From Octopus sinensis (taxonomy: Eukaryota), in contig NC_043011.1 in NCBI RefSeq assembly GCF_006345805.1, forward strand, positions 13,032,464-13,096,463: a DNA stretch of 64,000 bases. The letters are read 5' to 3'. Position numbers and translations under genes: made by a program. The notes under the pieces were generated by a model. That model had not been told where the DNA came from. It saw nothing but the letters and a program-made list of their open reading frames with translations, and did not search any database. Below, piece by piece: positions 28,885 through 62,695 of this stretch (its first letter is position 1; the number at the start of each line of letters is the position of its first letter).

Positions 28885-29067
28885 TAATTCAAAATTAAAA
28901 AGTCGAACACTCTTTACACTATTTACATTTGACGGATATTTGCCCTCATCTTGTTTGTTGTTAACAAAACGTTTCGGCTGATATACCATCCAGCTTTCAT
29001 CAGGTGTCTTGGGGGAAATTTCGAACCTGGGTTCTCATTCCTAAGGTATTTTTCGATGTTGTTGTTA

Positions 29068-29329: not shown

Positions 29330-29556
29330 CAACAACAACAACAACAACAGCAACAACAACAACATCGAAAATACCTTAGGAATGAGAACCCAAGTTCGAA
29401 ATTTTCCCCCAAGATACCTGATGAAAGCTGGATGGTATATCAGTCGAAACGTTTTGTTAACAACAAACAAGATGAGGACAAATATCCGTCAAATGTAAAT
29501 AATGTACATAATTCCTCATCTCTTAAATATAGAACTGTATTAAAGACGTCGAGTTT
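28885..29556. mobile_element. Head-to-head inverted pair of a tRNA-headed, (AAT)n-containing, hammerhead-bearing element
   Basis: 28921-29186 is the reverse complement of about 29200-29500. There is a B-box-like GAGTTCGATTCC head, and CTGATGA..GAAACGTT cores at 28966-29008 (-) and 29414-29459 (+). Confidence 0.8.
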
Positions 29557-34027: not shown

Positions 34028-34461
34028 TTTTTCTATTCCTGAGCGTTATACTAATACATCTGTTGTTTTGTACACCACCTGTCTTCGTCTTTTGTTTTTT
34101 TCGTAAAATCTCCCTATATATATATATATATATATATATTTGAGTAGTTGAATGAATTATATTATTATGGATAATTCGGTTAACCGATACCTGGGTAGCA
34201 AATTCACGTCAGAAAAACACGATTGAAGCTACATGCCAAGGCAGAGATCACGTGCTTTCGTGTGGAAATGTGTGTGTTTTTTTAAATACAAATAAATGAA
34301 AGAATGGAGTTGAACGACGAATTAACAAAATTCCTTTATTCTCGACATATGTTTCGAAGGCTGCATATTCCTAATTTAGATGACTGCCCACACGGAGCCC
34401 ATAATGGGCTTCGTGTGGGCAGTCATCTAAAAGATTTTGTGCATCTTCATGCTGACATAAG

Positions 34462-34560
34462 TTCCTTGTTTTTCCTGATGAGAAGGCGGCATAATGCACC
34501 CCTTATTCCTTCGAAATTAGGAATATGCAGCCTTCGAAACATATGTCGAGAATAAAGGAA
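34462..34560 (+). ncRNA. Type I hammerhead ribozyme, intact core
   Basis: TTTTC-CTGATGA(34475-81)-GAAGGC...GCCTTC-GAAAC-ATAT-GTC|GAGAA. Stem III is the palindrome ACATATGT and stem I is extended by TTCCTT/AAGGAA. Predicted cleavage follows 34547. Confidence 0.85.
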
Positions 34561-34616
34561 TTTTGTTAATTCGTCGTTCAACTCCATTCTTTCATTTATT
34601 TATATATATATATACG

Positions 34617-34675
<59 letters not shown>

Positions 34676-36092: not shown

Positions 36093-36166
36093 TTGAATAT
36101 ATACATTTTGAATATATATATATATAAATAAATGAAAGAATGGAGTTGAACGACGATTTAACAAAA

Positions 36167-36265
36167 TTCCTTTATTCTCGACATATGTTTCGAAGGCTGC
36201 ATATTCCTAATTTCGAAGGAATAAGGGGTGCATTATGCCGCCTTCTCATCAGGAAAAACAAGGAA
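36167..36265 (-). ncRNA. Type I hammerhead ribozyme, intact core (same family as 34462-34560)
   Basis: Reverse complement of the 34462-34560 motif, inside a ~295-bp element (36125-36420) flanked by (TA)n. Confidence 0.85.
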
Positions 36266-36420
36266 CTTATGTCAGCATCAAGATGAACAAAAACTCTTAG
36301 ATGACTGCCCACACGGAGCCCTTAGCATGTAGCTTCAACCGTGTTTTTCTGACGTGAATTTTCTACCCAGGTATCGGTTAACCGAATTATCCATACTAAG
36401 ATAATTCATTCAGCTACTTA

Positions 36421-36473
<53 letters not shown>

Positions 36474-42456: not shown

Positions 42457-43103
42457 TTTATTATATAGAAGGAGCTTCTACAGGACTAGAACTGTTTCAT
42501 TCAAGAGAAATCTTCAGGAAGCTAGTTTAACAAGAATTGTATTGGCATTTATACATTTAGGCAGGTTTAAAGGGGTGGTGGTGGGGACTTTTTGGGGGTA
42601 GGCATAGCGCAAAAAATCATACTTGGGGAGTGGTCAAGGAGTCAGTGTAAATTAGATAGAAGAATAAATAAAAGAATAAAAAAGGGAGAATAAAAAAAAA
42701 TATATAGAAGAATGGAGTTTTAGGTAAATAAGGAAAATCTCACTTATACCTATACACATATGTATACATATATACACACACTCACACACATATACATACT
42801 CACATACATACACACACACCCATATATATATATATATATATAACACCACACACACACATACATACATACATATATCTACACATATATATATATTCTATAT
42901 ATACATCACATATACATGCATATACATATACACAACACACATGTATATATACACACACACACGACCACACATATACATATACACAAAAAAAATATATACA
43001 TACACACACATACACATACACACATACACACACATATATATCCACATACACATATGCACACACAACACACAAGTCCCTATATACTCATATATACTTATAC
43101 ACA

Positions 43104-43141
<38 letters not shown>

Positions 43142-43587
43142 CATATGTGTACCTATTCATACCTACACATACACACATATATACATACAAATACAAACCC
43201 ATTCCCTAATTTTAATTTTATTATCTTCATTTATTACTTTCGTTATCTTTGACCGCTGGTCACAAGCATCTTGGCTACGACAACTAGTCCCTTTTATCTT
43301 TCTACTTGAGCACAAGCACTCACTCACGCACGCACACTCGTTAGCACGCACACTCACCCATTCGTACACTCATACACATACACGCACGCACGCGTTATAT
43401 TCATACATACATACATCTACATACATACACGTATATACACATACGTACGCGTACCTACAGATTCATGTCTACAATCTTAGAAGACTAGTCTATACATATA
43501 CACCAATAAATAATATACACACATACATATACACCTACCTACATACAAATACATACTACATATATATACACACACATATACATACAC

Positions 43588-43657
<70 letters not shown>

Positions 43658-43824
43658 TATATATACATACATATACAAATTATATACATACACATCCGCA
43701 TACATACATACATACACCCATACATACATACATATATACAAACAACACACACCCACACGTATACATATACATACATATACGCGCATGCATACACATACAA
43801 ATACATACACATACACATATACAT

Positions 43825-43856
<32 letters not shown>

Positions 43857-44263
43857 CTATACTATCTATATACATATATACATACATACATATACACATA
43901 TACATACACACACCACATACATACACATATACACATACACGCACATACACATATACATGCGTACCCATACACACACACACACACACACACACGCATCCAT
44001 ATATACACATAAGTACACACATGCGTAAAAGTATACATATATCTATGCTTACACATACACACACACACACGCACTCCTTATGTTCATACTTACATGCATA
44101 CTCAAAAATAAGTAATAAAATTATATACGTGCAGTTATTCATACATGCATACTCAAAAAATAAATAATAATAATAAATAATAAATATTAAGTATATATAC
44201 GTGCATTTACCTATTATACAGACGGATACATACATATAAACTTACACACACACAACTATATAT

Positions 44264-44318
<55 letters not shown>

Positions 44319-44628
44319 CACACACACACACACATATATATATATCTATATATATATATAATAATATATGTACACATACTTACACATATGTAAATATCAT
44401 ACACACATACATAACTCTACGTACCTACATATACCTAAACACACGAGCGTACACGTATATGTACTATACACTACACATACACATACCCACGCATATATAC
44501 ATACATACACATACATACACGCACATATACACATATATATATATACATATATATACACATATATATATATATACATATACACACATACACACATATATAC
44601 GTACATATACATACACACACATACACAT

Positions 44629-44673
<45 letters not shown>

Positions 44674-45027
44674 TATATATACATATACACATACATACAT
44701 ACACATACATATACATATACACACATACACACACACATATATATACACACACACACACATACATATACATACACACATACACACATATATACACATACAT
44801 ACACATATACACATATATATATTTATATATATATATATACATATACATGTGTGCAAACATACATACATACTCATACACACTCACACACTTACATATACAT
44901 ATATACACACACTTACACACACACATATATATATATATACATACATACATATAATATATATATAATATATACATATATAACACACATGTCTATACCACAT
45001 ACACATATGTACACATACACACATATT

Positions 45028-45064
<37 letters not shown>

Positions 45065-45552
45065 ATATCATACACACACATACATTATATACATATATAC
45101 ATATACATATAATATATATATATATATATACATACATACACACACACATATATATATACCACCACACCTACACATACACACATATATATACATATATACA
45201 TACATATACACACATACACACACCACATATATATGTACATACTACACATACACATACAACATACATATACATATACATATACACATGCACATACGTATAA
45301 CTCTACATACCCACATATACATATATATATATACACACACACACATATATATATATACACACACATATATATACACATATATATATGCACAATACACACA
45401 CATATATATATACCCATCTACAATCTATATATACACACACATATACATGCACATACACAATAACTCTACATACCTACATATACATCGACATACTCGCGTA
45501 CACTCATATATATATATATATACACATACGAGTATTATATATACACTATGAG

Positions 45553-45612
<60 letters not shown>

Positions 45613-45818
45613 TATGTATATGTATATGTGGGTATGTAGAGTTATACGCATGTGCATGTGTATATGCATATGTATATGTATGTGTATGTGTATGTGTATG
45701 TATGTACATATATATGTGTGTGTGTGTGTATGTGTGTATATGTATGTATATATGTATATATATGTGTGTATGTGTAGGTGTGGGTATATATATGTGTGTG
45801 TGTGTATGTATGTATGTA

Positions 45819-45849
<31 letters not shown>

Positions 45850-45866
45850 ATATATGTATGTGTGTG

Positions 45867-45906
<40 letters not shown>

Positions 45907-45984
45907 ATATGTGTTGTATAGACATGTGTGTATATATATGTATATATAATATATATTATATGTTGTATGTATTATGTATATAAT

Positions 45985-46017
<33 letters not shown>

Positions 46018-46275
46018 AAGTGTGTGTATATATGTATATGTAAGTGTGTGAGTGTGTATGAGTATGTATGTATGTTTGCACACATGTATATGTATATATA
46101 ATATATATATATGTGTGTGTATATGTGTATGTATGTGTATATATGTGTGTATGTATGTGTGTATGTATATGTATGTGTGTGTGTGTATATATGTATGTGT
46201 GTGTGTATGTGTGTATATGTATATGTATGTGTATGTATGTATGTGTATATGTATATATATGTATATGTGTGTATA

Positions 46276-46316
<41 letters not shown>

Positions 46317-46485
46317 ATATGTGCGTGTATGTATGTGTATGTATGTATATATGCGTGGGTATGTGTATGTGTATATGTACAATATACGTGTACGCTCCTG
46401 TTTTTAGGTATATGTAGGTACGTAGAGTTATGTATGTGTGTATGTATATGTACATATGTGTAAGTATGTGTACATATAATATATA

Positions 46486-46523
<38 letters not shown>

Positions 46524-46915
46524 AATGTGTATGTATGTGTGTGTGTGTGTGTGTTTGTGTAAGTTTATATGTATGTATCCGTCTGTATAATAGGTAACTG
46601 CACGTATATATACTTAATATTTATTATTTATTATTTATTATTTATTTTTTGAGTATGCATGTATGAATAACTGCACGTATATATATTTTATTACTTATTT
46701 TTTGAGTATGCATGTAAGTATGAACATAAGGAGTGGCGTGTGGGTGTGTGTACGTGTAAACATAGATATATGTATACTTTTACGCATGTGTGTACTTATG
46801 TGTATATATGGATGCGCGTGTGTGTGTGTGTGTATGGGTACGCATGTATATGTGTATGTGCGTGTATGTGTGTGTATATGTGTATATGTATGTATGTATA
46901 TGTATGTATGTGTAT

Positions 46916-46961
<46 letters not shown>

Positions 46962-47126
46962 ATGTATATGTGTATGTGTATGTATTTGTATGTGTATGCA
47001 TGCGCGTATATGTATGTATATGTATACGTGTGGGTGTGTGTATGTGTGTATATATGTATGTATGGGTGTATGTATGTATGTATGTATGCGGATGTGTATG
47101 TATATATATTTGTATATGTATGTATA

Positions 47127-47175
<49 letters not shown>

Positions 47176-47617
47176 ATGTGTATGTATATGTGTGTGTATA
47201 TATATGTATGTATGTATTTGTATGTAGGTGTATATGTATGTGTGTATATATATTTATTGGTGTATATGTATAGACTAGTCTTCTAAGATTGTAGACATGA
47301 ATCTGTAGGTACGCGTACGTATGTGTATATACGTGTATGTATGTAGATGTATGTATGTATGAATATAACGCGTGCGTGCGTGTATGTGTATGAGTGTACG
47401 AATGAGTGAGTGTGCGTGCTAACGAGTGTGCGTGCGTGAGTGAGTGCTTGTGCTCAAGTAGAAAGATAAAAGGGACTAGTTGTCGTAGCCAAGATGCTTG
47501 TGACCAGCGGTCAAAGATAACAAAAGTAATAAATGAAGATAATAAAATTAAAATTAGGAATGGGTTGTATTTGTATGTATAATGTGTGTATGTGTAGGTA
47601 TGAATAGGTACAATATG

Positions 47618-47665
<48 letters not shown>

Positions 47666-47910
47666 ATAATCTATGTGTATAAGTATATATGAGTATATAG
47701 GGACTTGTGTGTGTGGTGCATGTGTGTATGTGGATATATATGTGTGTGCATGTGTGTATGTGTATGTGTGTGTATGTATAAATTTTTTGTGTATATGTGT
47801 ATGTGTGGTCGTGTGTGTGTGTATATATACAATGTGTGTATGTGTATATATACATGTGTGTGTGTGTATGTATATGCATGTATATGTGTATGTGTATGTA
47901 TATATATATA

Positions 47911-47960
<50 letters not shown>

Positions 47961-47975
47961 AGATATATGTATGTA

Positions 47976-48012
<37 letters not shown>

Positions 48013-48371
48013 GGGTGTGTGTGTATGTATGTGAGTATGTATATGTGTGTGAGTGTGTGTATATATGTATACCTATATGTGTATAGGTATAAGTGAGATT
48101 TTCCTTATTTACCTAAAACTCTATTCTTCTATATATTTTTATTCTCCCTTTTTTTATTCTTTTATTTTTCTTCTATCTAATTTACCACTGACTCCTTGAC
48201 CACTCCCCAAGTATGATTTTTTTGCGCTATGCCTACCCCCCAAAAAGTCCCCCACCACCACCCCTTTAAACCTGCCTAAATGTATAAATGCCAATACAAT
48301 TTGTTAACTAGCTTCTGAAGATTTCTCTTGAATGAAACATTCTAGTCCTGTAGAAGCTCCTTCTTAATAAA
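42457..48371. repeat. ~5.9-kb imperfect palindrome of (CA/TA)-microsatellite-rich sequence
   Basis: Unique anchors are mirrored: 42460-42760/48075-48370, 43190-43510/47250-47570, 44000-44240/46560-46810 and 44400-44520/46320-46450. Confidence 0.9.
42473..42523 (-). ncRNA. Type I hammerhead ribozyme motif
   Basis: Minus strand: AGCTTC-CTGAAGA-TTTC(TCTT)GAAT-GAAAC-AG(TTCTAGTC)CT-GTA|GAAGCT. A damaged mirror copy lies at 48310-48358 (+). Confidence 0.75.
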
Positions 48372-58658: not shown

Positions 58659-60145
58659 TCTCTTATTATAAAAGGCAGATTTTATCTGCCTCCCTTTGTC
58701 AGTTATAGAAATCTACAATATAGGATTTCTTCAATTACAATTTACCTAGCATTTTTAAGAGTAGAATGCATCGGGTTTTGCCAGGTCCGGTTTTTAAAAT
58801 TTCAACCCCAATTAAGCAAAATTTAGAGAAAACTCACATTCTGGTGTATATGTCAAATGTTTTTCTTAATGTGGGATACACCACACGCAAACGCACACAC
58901 ACACAAAGGGAGCGAACTGTTTCACTGACGCTATCACCCTTCTCCTCCTTTGTCTTTGCAAGTTTGCAGCTATTAAAGTGAAAACAGTGAATCCGACAGC
59001 GATTAAGAAAATGAATTGGTACCTGAATGGAGTGAAAATTTAAAAACTGTTTCTTTCGGTGATTTTTCTGAAGAAACTGCACCAAGCCACAGACTTTCCC
59101 AGAAGAGTATAAAGCCTTAAACTATTTCTTTTTACTTTTTCGAATGAGCCCATCTGAAATCATTACGGTGGAAACGAAACGTTACGCTAAACGTAAACAA
59201 AACGAAAGAAAGGATAGTTTGTTATTTCCCACAACCTTAAATTAAATTAAGGCCTATTTTGCCATAAATATTATTATGGGTATCAGAAAGTTACCCAGAA
59301 TAACAAATTCTATCGTAAAATTTTGTCGTATACCCAATTGAATATTAGCTAATAACCCATTTTCTATAGCAATGTTTGAACAAAATTTTAATAATTTTAT
59401 ATATTGTTGAATTTACCTGTATCTACCTGCAATTAGAGTCACTTTGTGACAAAAATTATAGTATAGAATTGGTTGAGGACATTTCATTAAATTATCTTCC
59501 AAAAATCAGATTAATATATCGATAAATAAAAAAGTTATTGTTGTTTAATGAAACCAGACTAAATTTGTGATTACGTTAGAAATTAATTGAAACACATAAG
59601 GGGTGTATTTTGGTCAGAAATATAGTAACGAAAGGGTTAAGAAAAACCAAAAAATATTTTATTCTTTATAAATGTTGTGTTCAAAATAACATTTTCTTTT
59701 AAGAATGTGTATATAACAAAGTATGTGTATATAACTACGTGGCTTATATCTTTATATATAAAACTGAAGTTGTGTGTCTGTCTCCTACGATTTAGATTCG
59801 TAACTACTCCCACATTTTGCGGTGCAGTGTAACCAAAACCGGGTATCTTATAGTCGTGATTCATATCGAGCCCTTCTGGGTATTAGCGCATGTCTACGAT
59901 GAGTCTACGATTTTAAAAATAATTTACCATCATATTTTTCCATTTTCATGCATTTTTTCGCTATTATATAAGGGAAGTAACTCTCTAAAAATATTTACGA
60001 TGTGTCAACGATTTAAAAATAAATTTACCTTAATTTTTTTTCCATTTTTAATGCATTTTTTCCTACTTTTTGGCTATAACTCTCTAAAAATGCTTATATA
60101 GTTATTTCCCTTACAAACCCGAGCAACGCCGGGTGATACTGCTAG
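58659..60145 (+). mobile_element. Composite Helitron: two 5' ends (58659 and 59749) sharing one 3' end
   Basis: The 5' end at 58659 is identical to that at 36828. A second TC start, TCTTTATATATAAAACTGAAG, lies at 59749. The 3' end is CCCGAGCAACGCCGGGTGATACTGCTAG. Confidence 0.72.
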
Positions 60146-60176
60146 TATATATATATAAATATAAATGCTTATAAAC

Positions 60177-60268
<92 letters not shown>

Positions 60269-60453
60269 AAATAAGGGGGAAAATTAATAATATCGTCAAT
60301 TTAACACCAAGTGGCTTAATGCATAAAAACCAGGGATACAATAAAAAATTTATACATAAATATAAGAGAGTGAGCACTATATGGTCGACTCCAGCGCTAA
60401 AAATAGATCCGCTATGGTATTAGCCACTAAAAATTAAGTAAAATTGCATAATA

Positions 60454-60863
60454 GGCGCAGGAGTGGCTGTGTGGTAAGTAGCTTGCTAACCAACCACATG
60501 GTTCCGGGTTCTGTCCCACTGCGTGGCATCTTGGGCAAGCGTCTTCTGCTATGGCCCCGGGCCGACCAATGCCTTGTGAGTGGATTTGGTAGACGGAAAC
60601 TGAAAGAAGCCTGTCGTATATATGTATATATATATATATATGTGTGTGTTTTTGTGCGTCTGTGTTTGTTCCCCTAGCATTGCTTGACAACCGATGCTGG
60701 TGTGTTTACGTCCCCGTCACTTAGCGGTTCGGCAAAAGAGACCGATAGAATAAGTACTGGGCTTACAAAAAGAATAAGTCCCGGGGTTGAGTTGCTCGAC
60801 TAAAGGCGGTGCTCCAGCATGGCCGCAGTCAAATGACTGAAACAAGTAAAAGAGTAAAGAGAG
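60454..60863 (+). mobile_element. SINE family A inserted into hammerhead loop II
   Basis: Interrupts TAAGTAAAATTGCATAATACATTAATAGC, with AATA duplicated. Confidence 0.9.
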
Positions 60864-61321
60864 AATACATTAATAGCGAAACAATTGTCCAGAGTTAATC
60901 TATATTTTTTTATTTTTCACTTGCCCTGCTCGTTTACGTTAAATGTGTTGATTCTCCTAGGAAACAATTTTTTAGTGGTTAATACCATAGCGGATCTATT
61001 TTTAGCGCTAGAGTCGACCATATAGTGGTCACTCTCTTATATTTATGTATAATTTTTTTATTGTATCCCTGGTTTTTATGCGCTAAGGCACTTGGTGTTA
61101 AATTGATGGTATTATTAAATTAATATCCAATTTTTCACCCTTATTTGTGATTTTAATTATACTGCAGTAAATCTTTTATGCACTATTTGTTTCCGGAAGA
61201 CTTATCGCACTTTTAGCGAGGGAATTTGAATCATAACTGCGAATATAATCGATTAAACCACACGTGTGTTTGACGTTATGTTAAAATTCAGCGTGCGATT
61301 TAATAAATTGTATTTTAGACA

Positions 61322-61398
61322 AATTCTGTTGATGACCTATAGATGTTGTGTAAGTAAAATTGCATAATACATTAATAGCGAAACAATTGTCCAGAGTT
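61322..61398 (+). ncRNA. Type I hammerhead motif (UUGAUGA variant)
   Basis: AATTCTG-TTGATGA-CCTAT...ATAGC-GAAAC-AATT-GTC|CAGAGTT. Stem III is the palindrome ACAATTGT. Confidence 0.72.
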
Positions 61399-61553
61399 AA
61401 TCTATATTTTTGTTATTTTTCACTTGCCCTGCTCGTTTACGTTAAATGTTGTGTTGATTCTCTTTGGAAACAATTTTTTAGTGGCTAATACCATAGCGGA
61501 TCTATTTTTAGCGCTAGAATCGACCATATAGTGGTCCCTCTATTATATTTATG

Positions 61554-61596
<43 letters not shown>

Positions 61597-61735
61597 AGCT
61601 GTTTACACCGTAAAGGAAAATTATAGTCGTCACCTAAACTTCGCTAAGGGTATGAATAACATCTACATTGCTAGAGATAGGACCTAAAATGTTCCAATGC
61701 TGTTACAAAGCACATAACATATTCTCTGATAGGGG

Positions 61736-61904
61736 CAGGGCAGGGCAGGGCAGGGCCGGCCCAAGGGTTGATGGGGCCCCGGGCAAGCTGAACCTCGGCG
61801 TGTACAAGCTGACGGTCGTGGAAATTTCCTTGTCTTTGTCACGCCCCCTAGCACATGGCACCCAGGGTGACTGCCCGAGTTGCCGGCACCTTTAGCCGGC
61901 CCTG
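61736..61904. mobile_element. hAT-type MITE
   Basis: TIR CAGGGCCGGC/GCCGGCCCTG and 8-bp TSD GATAGGGG (61728-61735 and 61905-61912). Confidence 0.85.
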
Positions 61905-62068
61905 GATAGGGGCTGCAATCGCCCCGAACACCGAACCAAGAATTCCCTACCGGTCGGTTTCGTCTATTGCTGTAGCCATCTTCAGCAAGGCCAGCTCGTT
62001 CAGTTGATTCCGGACTGCCCCGCCGAAAAAAGAGAATTTGGTAGGCAGAAACTGAAAGAAGCCCGTCG

Positions 62069-62137
<69 letters not shown>

Positions 62138-62179
62138 TTCTAATATAGGATAAATGATACTTCCAGATTCTATATCAAT

Positions 62180-62695
62180 CACCAAATCTCCAACGAATAA
62201 GTAAAAAATTACAAATTATCAACAGTCGAAGACAATCGCCTAACCTCAAGAGACTCCTTAACAAAGGCGAGATTCACCTTTGAAACAGACACGATGCGAG
62301 TAACCAACTGTAGAAACCCTCGTTCTGAGACATGTGAACTAATTGAGCAAGGGACAACCAAAAGACTCAAGAATGGGAAGGAATTAAAAGTGAATGCAAA
62401 CATGAATTGCAAAATAAAAAAAAACTCAACTACTGCATCACATGCCCACAATGCAATGAAAACTACGTTGGAGAGACAGGAAGGAAACTGACCAGCCGTG
62501 TAACTGTACATAAACTACAAATGAGGGATTAATCTCTTAGGTATGTCCCATGCAGTGAAAGTCTAGATATCTATGCAAATGGAAAATTTAAAATATTCCC
62601 ATTTTACAAAATAAATGATGAAAATGTACAACTATGAAAGGCAAAAGAAGAATGCTTTTTTCAGAATTCTAAATCCGAAATTAAACCGAAAATAG
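62180..62695 (+). mobile_element. Penelope-like element GIY-YIG remnant (Cys-rich linker type)
   Basis: RQSPNLKRLL..CRNPRSETCELI...MNCK..YCITCPQCNENYVGETGRKLTSRVTVHK...KIFPFYK...PKLN. Confidence 0.85.

Follow-up and report, generated by a model that had tools for sequence, protein, structure and literature searches.

The window analysed in this study is a stretch of 64,000 nucleotides of Octopus sinensis DNA (RefSeq assembly GCF_006345805.1, contig NC_043011.1, positions 13,032,464 to 13,096,463 of the forward strand), and the element in question is a repeat near its end that carries a hammerhead ribozyme motif. At 60264-61556 the window contains a single insertion inside a (TA)n tract, wherein an inverted arm of 170 nt is followed by 1.41 head-to-tail copies of a 502-nt unit (Table 1). 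The direct repeat is formed by 60864-61050 and 61366-61556, which have a start-to-start spacing of 502-506 nt and are 94-98% identical over three gap-free blocks; BLAST aligned unit positions 1-502 with 60864-61365, and positions 1-187 with 61366-61556 at 95% identity. The inverted arm (60264-60433) matched the reverse complement of unit 106-288 at 87% with gaps (nhmmer E-value 5.6e-44), and its gap-free core of 153 nt (60281-60433 against 60969-61121) was 93% identical. The original prediction for this locus had described about 1.4 tandem copies of a 502-nt unit, preceded by an inverted copy of 172 nt and flanked on both sides by (TA)n. The tandem, the inversion and both flanks (60190-60264, with TA runs at 60190-60235 and 60237-60264, and 61558-61593) were found as described; only the length of the inverted arm had to be corrected. 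The cleavage half of the hammerhead, GAAACAATTGTC/CAGAG, where the slash marks the predicted cut, is indeed present twice, at 60878-60894 and 61380-61396. No other unit-like stretch was found anywhere in the 64-kb window. The unit has a G+C content of 30.9% and is non-coding: the longest stop-to-stop frame overlapping 60864-61556 is 55 amino acids.

The direct arm is interrupted at 60454-60863, where a short interspersed element (SINE) had been proposed and where a discrete dispersed repeat does lie. After excision of this 410-nt insert, 60434-60453 reads directly into 60868, and the direct arm then measures 16 + 502 + 191 = 709 nt, or 1.41 units. The insert is bordered by AATA at 60450-60453 and 60864-60867. 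A genome search with the insert gave 4,038 first-look candidates, 40 of which were scored; most of the matches spanned nearly all of positions 1-410 at 95-98% identity. Other copies of the repeat extend into A-rich tails, as seen in contigs of three sequencing runs. ARAGORN detected no tRNA head in the insert. A second SINE-like fragment, 89% identical to 60579-60641 and with its internal (TA)n expanded, lies at 62031-62093, 470 nt downstream of the insertion.

Table 1. Features of the hammerhead repeat insertion, in window coordinates
Feature	Position	Strand	Basis or remark
Left (TA)n flank, belonging to the target microsatellite	60190-60263	.	TA runs, sequence
Inverted arm, unit 106-288 reversed	60264-60433	-	Fixed end B (about 286-288) forms the outer, left end, against (TA)n
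Start of direct arm, about unit 487-502 plus AATA	60434-60453	+	Inside the helix II loop; compared with 61350-61369
Later insertion, 410-nt SINE-like dispersed repeat	60454-60863	+	AATA on both sides
Full 502-nt unit, non-coding	60864-61365	+	
3' half of upstream hammerhead: GAAA, CAATTG, TC, helix I 3' strand	60878-60896	+	Predicted cut between 60889 and 60890
Only complete hammerhead fold of the window copy	61322-61398	+	Sequence, alignment, pair counts
Complete fold, helix I	61322-61328 with 61392-61398		
Complete fold, core TTGATGA	61329-61335		
Complete fold, helix II	61336-61379		
Complete fold, GAAA	61380-61383		
Complete fold, palindrome CAATTG	61384-61389		Predicted cut between 61391 and 61392
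Partial second unit (1 to about 190)	61366-61556	+	BLAST 95%; 3' end is fixed end A, against (TA)n
Right (TA)n flank	61558-61593	.	

The motif of the unit consists, in order, of one strand of helix I (AAUUCUG), the core CUGAUGA, a long helix II, GAAA, CAAUUG, UC, the cut, and the second strand of helix I (CAGAGUU). This strand order in the alignment is that of a type I hammerhead, with helix I open and helices II and III as hairpins. Among 28 copies taken by BLAST alone, CUGANGA was present in 26, GAAA and CAATTG in 27 each, and GU(C/U) in all 28. The sole core position that varied among subfamilies was N7 (U, A, or G), which is a free position in hammerheads. A larger alignment of 33 copies was chosen with a loose motif filter and includes relatives found by pattern; 34 copies passed the filter, and one that ends at the cut site was dropped. 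The core invariance of these 33 copies is partly due to the way the set was constructed, a bias of which the helices are free. Under the named fold, 90.6% of the cells were paired, versus 31-38% with slid partners. Helix I was paired in 95.7% of cells and showed double-sided changes in five of its seven pairs (for example, UUCUG/CAGAG, UUCUA/UAGAA, and UUUUGG/CCAAAA); it was also recovered unaided by RNAalifold. The base of helix II showed double-sided changes in three of five pairs, with 76.4% of the cells paired. The observed covariation score was reached by none of 500 shuffles. Helix II holds an insertion of 44-47 nt that folds as a hairpin of its own, and no bulged base lies between positions 9 and 10.1.

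Helix III is made up of one A-U and one C-G pair only, closed by AAUU, and showed no variation; the A15.1-U16.1 pair (alignment positions 77-84) was A-U in all 33 copies. In an unconstrained co-fold of two copies, the 8-nt palindrome ACAAUUGU formed helix III as an intermolecular duplex of 8 bp and left both cores open, at an energy of -39.8 kcal/mol as against 2 x -17.8 kcal/mol. Because the stem III palindrome is invariant across the family and the co-fold forms this intermolecular helix, dimeric cleavage, which had been suggested from the palindrome of the window copy, can fairly be inferred. The arrangement is one found in most animal type I hammerheads, which cleave as dimers within tandem repeats (PMC4209133).

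The window copy is predicted to be dead, a relic for which no function is expected. Its only complete motif has U instead of C at core position C3 (61329), a change found in 1 of the 33 aligned copies; the family consensus is CUGAUGA, as had been expected, and the U is private to the window. Every contig of other copies that covers 61329, from seven runs, reads C. The upstream motif has no CUGANGA half, its arm beginning at about unit 487, within the helix II loop, and it is also split by the SINE-like repeat. Given the change of C3 to U, the absent upstream 5' half and the split, the window copy is predicted to be unable to release a monomer. This agrees with the original prediction, which had noted UUGAUGA (at 61329-61335) and a first core without its CUGAUGA half and had suggested that the copy may be inactive. 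The three overlapping segments of the window are 94-95% alike, and they are 91-94% alike to 37 other young segments. Private variants common to the three window segments, sought as proof of a single template, were not found. Since the segments are only this similar and share no private variants, the copy is an old insertion. Three genome-like runs gave repeat-level cover only, with no locus-specific bridging contig for an empty site or for an allele that predates the SINE-like repeat.

The 502-nt unit matches many loci on many chromosomes and therefore represents a repeat family, not a local coincidence. With the unit as query, 2,933 first-look candidates were obtained in the 2.72-Gb genome; scoring of 40 of these yielded 105 matches, which were spread over many chromosomes and had identities of 76-95%. 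A second query, the unit of an older subfamily, gave 1,404 candidates. The copies are dispersed and do not form long arrays; most are 1.2-1.7-mers with an inverted arm. A Pfam search assigned no family to 16 frames lying near family copies and in the window. The pattern CTGANGA-N45-62-GAAACAATTGTH had 4,802 matches in the genome, compared with 0 and 2 for the reversed control, a count that leaves out the youngest 502-nt subfamily, whose 44-nt spacer falls outside N45-62. The pattern matches comprise several families with different helix II inserts and a common helix III palindrome. Many of them are close inverted pairs, judging from the matches listed, which are the first 100 places on C1. In one pattern-matched family, the copies are spaced about 533 nt apart and the helix II loop resembles that of the 502-nt family. 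The 502-nt unit had been called a family unrelated to another hammerhead element of the window. This is true within the window, but genome-wide the GAAACAAUUGU half is common to several families. Among the papers listed by full-text searching, none described such repeats in cephalopods.

The way in which the family inserts was examined at 55 loci. Once duplicates and insertions lying at the edge of a locus had been excluded, and the window locus, which BLAST had split into two groups, had been counted as one, 40 distinct insertions could be classified. The 3' ends lie at two unit positions, A at about 186-190 (...CTCTCTTATATTTATGTATA) and B at about 283-290 (...TTTTCACCCTTATTTGTAAT), and the 5' ends are variable. 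A TA run of at least 10 nt adjoined 36 of 48 A or B ends, as against 87 of 2,000 background windows (4.3%). Twenty-four insertions are one-armed, with the arm ending at A in 13, at B in 8, and elsewhere in 3. The remaining 16 have two arms whose 3' ends always point outward: 11 combine A with B, 5 combine B with another end (unit 26, 161, 203, 327, or 374), and neither A+A nor B+B occurred. If the ends were independent, such pairing would have a probability of about 7e-4. In the A+B insertions, one arm stops at A and the other continues 100 nt further to B. The A/B dichotomy reads naturally as a one-sided tail of the type made by Penelope-like elements (PLEs), here of 100 nt. The inversion (in 16 of the 40 insertions) and the partial tandem (in most) indicate that the layout first noted in the window is more than a local one-off. 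The longest arms reach 2.4 units (L018). No terminal direct repeats occur beyond the partial tandem, and primer-binding sites (PBS) and polypurine tracts (PPT) were never searched for specifically. At L014, outside microsatellite DNA, the insertion is bordered by a 7-bp target duplication, GGTTCTT. No poly(A) or tail of the long interspersed element (LINE) type was found at the fixed ends.

In the older subfamily, 5' ends near unit 331-351 were observed at L008, L025, L115, C4:299921, C12:75366776, C6:35834576, and C8:84582296. This common 5' end, which is modestly enriched, could mark a fixed 5' end of the RNA (a transcription start) and not a stop at random.

The part of the unit around B (200-330) is the most conserved, at 0.89-0.97 per 20-nt window among ten representatives, and exceeds the ribozyme in this respect. 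A consensus fold of unit 111-345 from 13 copies contains a hairpin just 5' of A (GACCAYAUAGUGGUC, in which one pair is compensatory). A second hairpin, with GGUG/CACC closing it, ends 12 nt ahead of B, and some 10 nt beyond B comes a third, which is invariant and of 8 bp (AUACUGCA/UGCAGUAU). The motif C(Y)CUUAU(A)UUU..GU precedes A as well as B, and similar ends, with CTT plus an A/T-rich stretch, are found in the sampled PLEs and in another hammerhead element of the window. It is possible that the end motif and the hairpins together act as a start signal; the data are compatible with this and do not prove it. A and B were also compared as copies of a duplicated single module, and this idea was rejected: 89 of 500 shuffles reached the local-alignment score, and only C(Y)CTTAT(A)TTT..GT is alike.

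PLEs are themselves abundant in the genome. The GIY-YIG domain gave 5,029 first-look candidates, and intact PLE frames of 775, 781, and 883 amino acids contain RVT_1 together with GIY-YIG at the C terminus. In 11 of 14 sampled PLE copies, one terminus ends against (TA)n, and two PLE loci are two-armed with their 3' ends outward. For endonuclease-bearing PLEs, Craig et al. (2021) described 5' truncation, partial tandems (pseudo-long terminal repeats, or pseudo-LTRs), (TA)n targets, an adjacent inverted 5'-truncated copy, and a tail of 30-40 bp at one end only; tails and complex tandem or inverted structures are said there to be unseen in non-LTR elements (PMC8557442). One two-armed PLE (L120:1384-6509, G000:C2) has both arms ending in ...CCTCATTTCTTCTAA; one arm lies directly against (TA)n, and the other has about 36 extra bases before (TA)n, which constitutes a one-sided tail. 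At L119:2439-5068 (G000:C15:17221438-17224067), a pair of PLE fragments forms a near-perfect palindrome with 71 nt between the arms. The arms (693, 499, and 118 nt) are 100% complementary, and both outer ends are the same element terminus; the locus represents a two-armed insertion of very recent date or else an artefact of the assembly.

We consider it likely that the window locus holds a decayed copy of a 502-nt non-coding type I hammerhead family, inserted at (TA)n when a multimeric or circular RNA of the family underwent target-primed reverse transcription, probably with the enzyme of a PLE. Transcription of a master copy that has a partial unit upstream would run through two hammerheads separated by 502 nt. 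Via ACAAUUGU, the two would form a double hammerhead and be cut after GUC, whereby a 502-nt monomer would be released. The monomer would likely be circularized by the host tRNA ligase, by analogy with the retrozymes of coral, mussel, and axolotl. The PLE reverse transcriptase would then start at A or B on the family RNA from a nicked TA target; priming by both DNA ends of the break would give two arms, each extending a variable distance and sometimes more than one turn of the unit. Among sequencing runs recorded as RNA, none was listed as containing the family. In four runs guessed to be RNA, which may contain DNA, the contigs were fragmentary, came from both strands, and did not span the unit. 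Three of these contigs run across the unit junction and across the site in its uncut form; since the runs may contain DNA, they bear on cleavage in neither direction.

Several observations weigh against this interpretation, some of which concern the ribozyme. The 10.1-11.1 pair is G-C in 9 of the 33 aligned copies, G-U in 3, and unpaired in 21; it is mostly a C.C mismatch in the young subfamily, the window copy included. In canonical motifs, this position is highly conserved as G-C (PMC4209133). Because of the C.C mismatch, the ribozyme activity of the young subfamily may be low. The GCUAU/AUAGC stem II expected for the consensus is accordingly seen in the older subfamilies (G10.1 in 12 of 33) but not in the young one. 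The minimum-energy fold of a young-copy monomer also differs from the hammerhead (-17.8 versus -14.3 kcal/mol). Rfam hammerhead models had no match at the gathering score in the window, and no match even at E up to 10 in 59500-62200 and seven family loci; a likely reason for this miss is that helix II carries an insert of 44-47 nt and that helix III is 2 bp long. Only 1 motif in 50, that of L002, ends exactly at the predicted cut, which is an anecdote, and otherwise there is no trace of a cleaved template. A tandem junction, too, would look the same whether the template was a circle, a multimeric transcript, or a series of linear monomers between which the enzyme switched.

Other contrary observations concern the PLEs. 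In the one two-armed PLE locus whose arms are 100% identical, a single end occurs on both arms, unlike the A+B rule. A 13-unit nhmmer profile, run against 28 PLE loci that are a small sample of the 5,029 GIY-YIG candidates, found only an inserted family copy. A regular-expression search of the 1.5 kb downstream of the open reading frames (ORFs) in 14 oriented PLE loci revealed other hammerhead types, not that of the 502-nt family. Among the sampled PLE loci, a CTGAAGA...GAAACAATTGTA motif is present only in a degenerate copy (L036/L089), about 940 nt downstream of its GIY-YIG.

Two of the loci just mentioned merit description. At L002:2062-2087 (G000:C8), the inverted arm stops at the predicted cut (...GAAACAATTGTC) and is followed by unrelated flank; such an end would be expected if the cDNA began at the 3' end of a self-cleaved RNA. 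The family copy inserted at L049:7558-8324 (G000:C13) is divergent and two-armed, lies 2.4 kb downstream of the PLE ORF, and has a stretch covering the 3' half of the ribozyme (about unit 474-502 and 1-41) that is missing or unrecognisable. Weak lenient-BLAST matches upstream of the PLE frames in L049, L055, and L057 were discarded, as nhmmer did not confirm them.

A different enzyme could also be responsible. LINE target-primed reverse transcription with twin priming generates 3' ends that are fixed and 5' ends that vary, together with 5' inversions and a target duplication. A hammerhead-bearing non-autonomous retroelement mobilized by a LINE would fit the ends and inversions observed here, including the one 7-bp target duplication, and no PLE partner was recognized by sequence among the 28 PLE loci. 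We nevertheless think this unlikely. The fixed ends are without poly(A) or a LINE-type tail; twin-primed arms should be contiguous on the template, whereas here they overlap or stand in unrelated register; and PLE copies of the same genome have the same layout. The (TA)n bias (36 of 48 ends), the partial tandems, the one-sided 100-nt extension, and the lack of A+A and B+B also speak for a PLE, such features being described for PLEs and said to be unseen in non-LTR elements (PMC8557442). The hammerhead could also have been inherited from a PLE-type ancestor and be idle, with linear read-through transcripts, tandems made by template switching, and no 502-nt circle. Non-circular PLEs also make partial tandems (PMC8557442), and the minimal hammerheads of PLEs cleave poorly in vitro (PMC4209133). 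The young subfamily spread despite its C.C at 10.1-11.1, and the common 5' end of older insertions at about 331-351 fits a linear RNA with a fixed start. Yet the core has been kept and the helices covary across subfamilies that differ by at least 20%, which would be hard to explain without selection on master copies, and comparable animal repeats yield abundant circles (PMC7229834); an idle hammerhead thus seems improbable.

Explanations without an RNA intermediate fare worse. The window layout alone is readable as a local duplication and inversion at the DNA level, and at L010 an entire composite has been duplicated in tandem as DNA. However, the layout recurs at independent loci whose inner junctions differ and whose two outer ends are the same, the copies are dispersed and not arranged in long arrays, and a target duplication borders one copy. 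An origin as a satellite or by local rearrangement, contradicted by the dispersal, the end positions, and the insertion classes, was therefore rejected and can be given very little credence. Inverted arms and TA-rich flanks on both sides are also what a foldback or miniature inverted-repeat transposable element (MITE)-type DNA transposon, with terminal inverted repeats and TA insertion, would show. In such an element, it would be difficult to account for outer ends at different unit positions (A versus B in 11 of the 16 two-armed insertions, B and another end in 5), for the 24 of 40 insertions that have one arm, and for inner ends that vary freely. The arm and end classification of the 40 insertions contradicts this origin, which was likewise rejected and is extremely improbable.

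For PLE-type insertion of the hammerhead RNA, the strict one-of-each pairing of the start sites is the one feature that most deserves follow-up. Conceivably, the two sites work as a coupled pair: a PLE complex would dock at about unit 200-330 and prime both TA ends on one circular RNA, the arms proceeding from B and A. We hold this to be doubtful. If true, the family would lay open both the handle on the RNA and the geometry with which Penelope-type elements integrate. To our knowledge, no in vitro system for Penelope-type integration exists.

The repeats are best regarded as a new family among the animal non-LTR retrozymes, a known kind of element, and not as a new system: they fall within the sequence-level definition of these elements, and the differences are of degree. 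According to Cervera and de la Pena (2020), metazoan non-LTR retrozymes are likewise non-coding, A+T-rich repeats of a few hundred bases with a type I hammerhead, arranged head-to-tail in many dispersed copies with no LTR. Helix III is weak in both, and dimer action in the style of the axolotl retrozyme would also apply to the 502-nt family. The known elements differ in giving RNAs of 170-400 nt, compared with a 502-nt unit here, and in forming longer tandems, compared with 1.2-1.7-mers with an inverted arm for most copies here. The words 'octopus' and 'cephalopod' do not occur in that paper (PMC7229834). The dimeric animal type I and PLE minimal hammerheads covered by Cervera and de la Pena (2014) have a helix III of 1-2 bp with a small palindromic loop, a helix I of 6-7 bp, and tandem motifs able to form a double hammerhead, all as in the octopus family. 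The latter differs in its 44-47-nt helix II insertion, the lack of a 9/10.1 bulge, and the loss of G10.1-C11.1 in the young subfamily (PMC4209133).

Endonuclease-bearing PLEs, as described by Craig et al., are similar to the family in truncation, tandems, the inverted copy, the extension at one end, and the (TA)n bias, which are also found in the PLE loci of this genome. The 502-nt family differs in having no ORF and in an extension of about 100 nt instead of 30-40 bp (PMC8557442), and no sequence similarity to the sampled PLEs (28 loci) was found. Li, Clavereau and Pollet (2026) view animal retrozymes as non-autonomous PLE derivatives. As in their study, a retrozyme and PLEs coexist in one genome and the hammerhead lies in a pseudo-LTR-like repeat; the Xenopus retrozyme consensus, however, matches PLE termini, and no such match was found here among 28 PLE loci (bioRxiv 10.64898/2026.07.22.740005). 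In plant LTR retrozymes, two hammerheads in direct repeats also flank the RNA to be released (PMC4918200). Plant retrozymes are distinguished by type III hammerheads, true LTRs, a PBS, a PPT, and 4-bp target duplications (PMC7229834), none of which applies here.

Few animal species are known to have circular-RNA retroelements that bear a ribozyme, and the borrowing of a reverse transcriptase by animal retrozymes is still argued from co-occurrence and sequence kinship. The 502-nt family is a well-behaved case, with thousands of copies, covarying subfamilies, two sharp start sites, and the one-of-each rule. It makes both the start signal and the model of two-ended priming testable.

The window also contains other elements with hammerhead or hammerhead-like motifs. 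An inverted pair of CTGAAGA...GAAACAGTTCTAGTC motifs, at 42479-42517 (minus strand) and 48315-48352 (plus strand), surrounds 5.8 kb of degenerate TA/TATACA microsatellite, and the long frames within 42479-48352 had no Pfam family. Another inverted pair, at 28915-29021 and 29400-29506, has arms of 107 nt that are 95% complementary and flank (ATT)n/(AAT)n; each arm carries a hammerhead-like motif (CTGATGAAAGCTGG...GAAACGTTTTGTT). A further hammerhead element (CTGATGAGAAGG...GAAACATATGTC) lies at 34134-34630 and 36097-36427, with inverted arms in (TA)n and the second copy 1.8 kb away. It is probably the 354-nt element with which the original prediction had compared the 502-nt unit, and one of its ends, ...CTTTCATTTATTTAT, lies against (AT)n.

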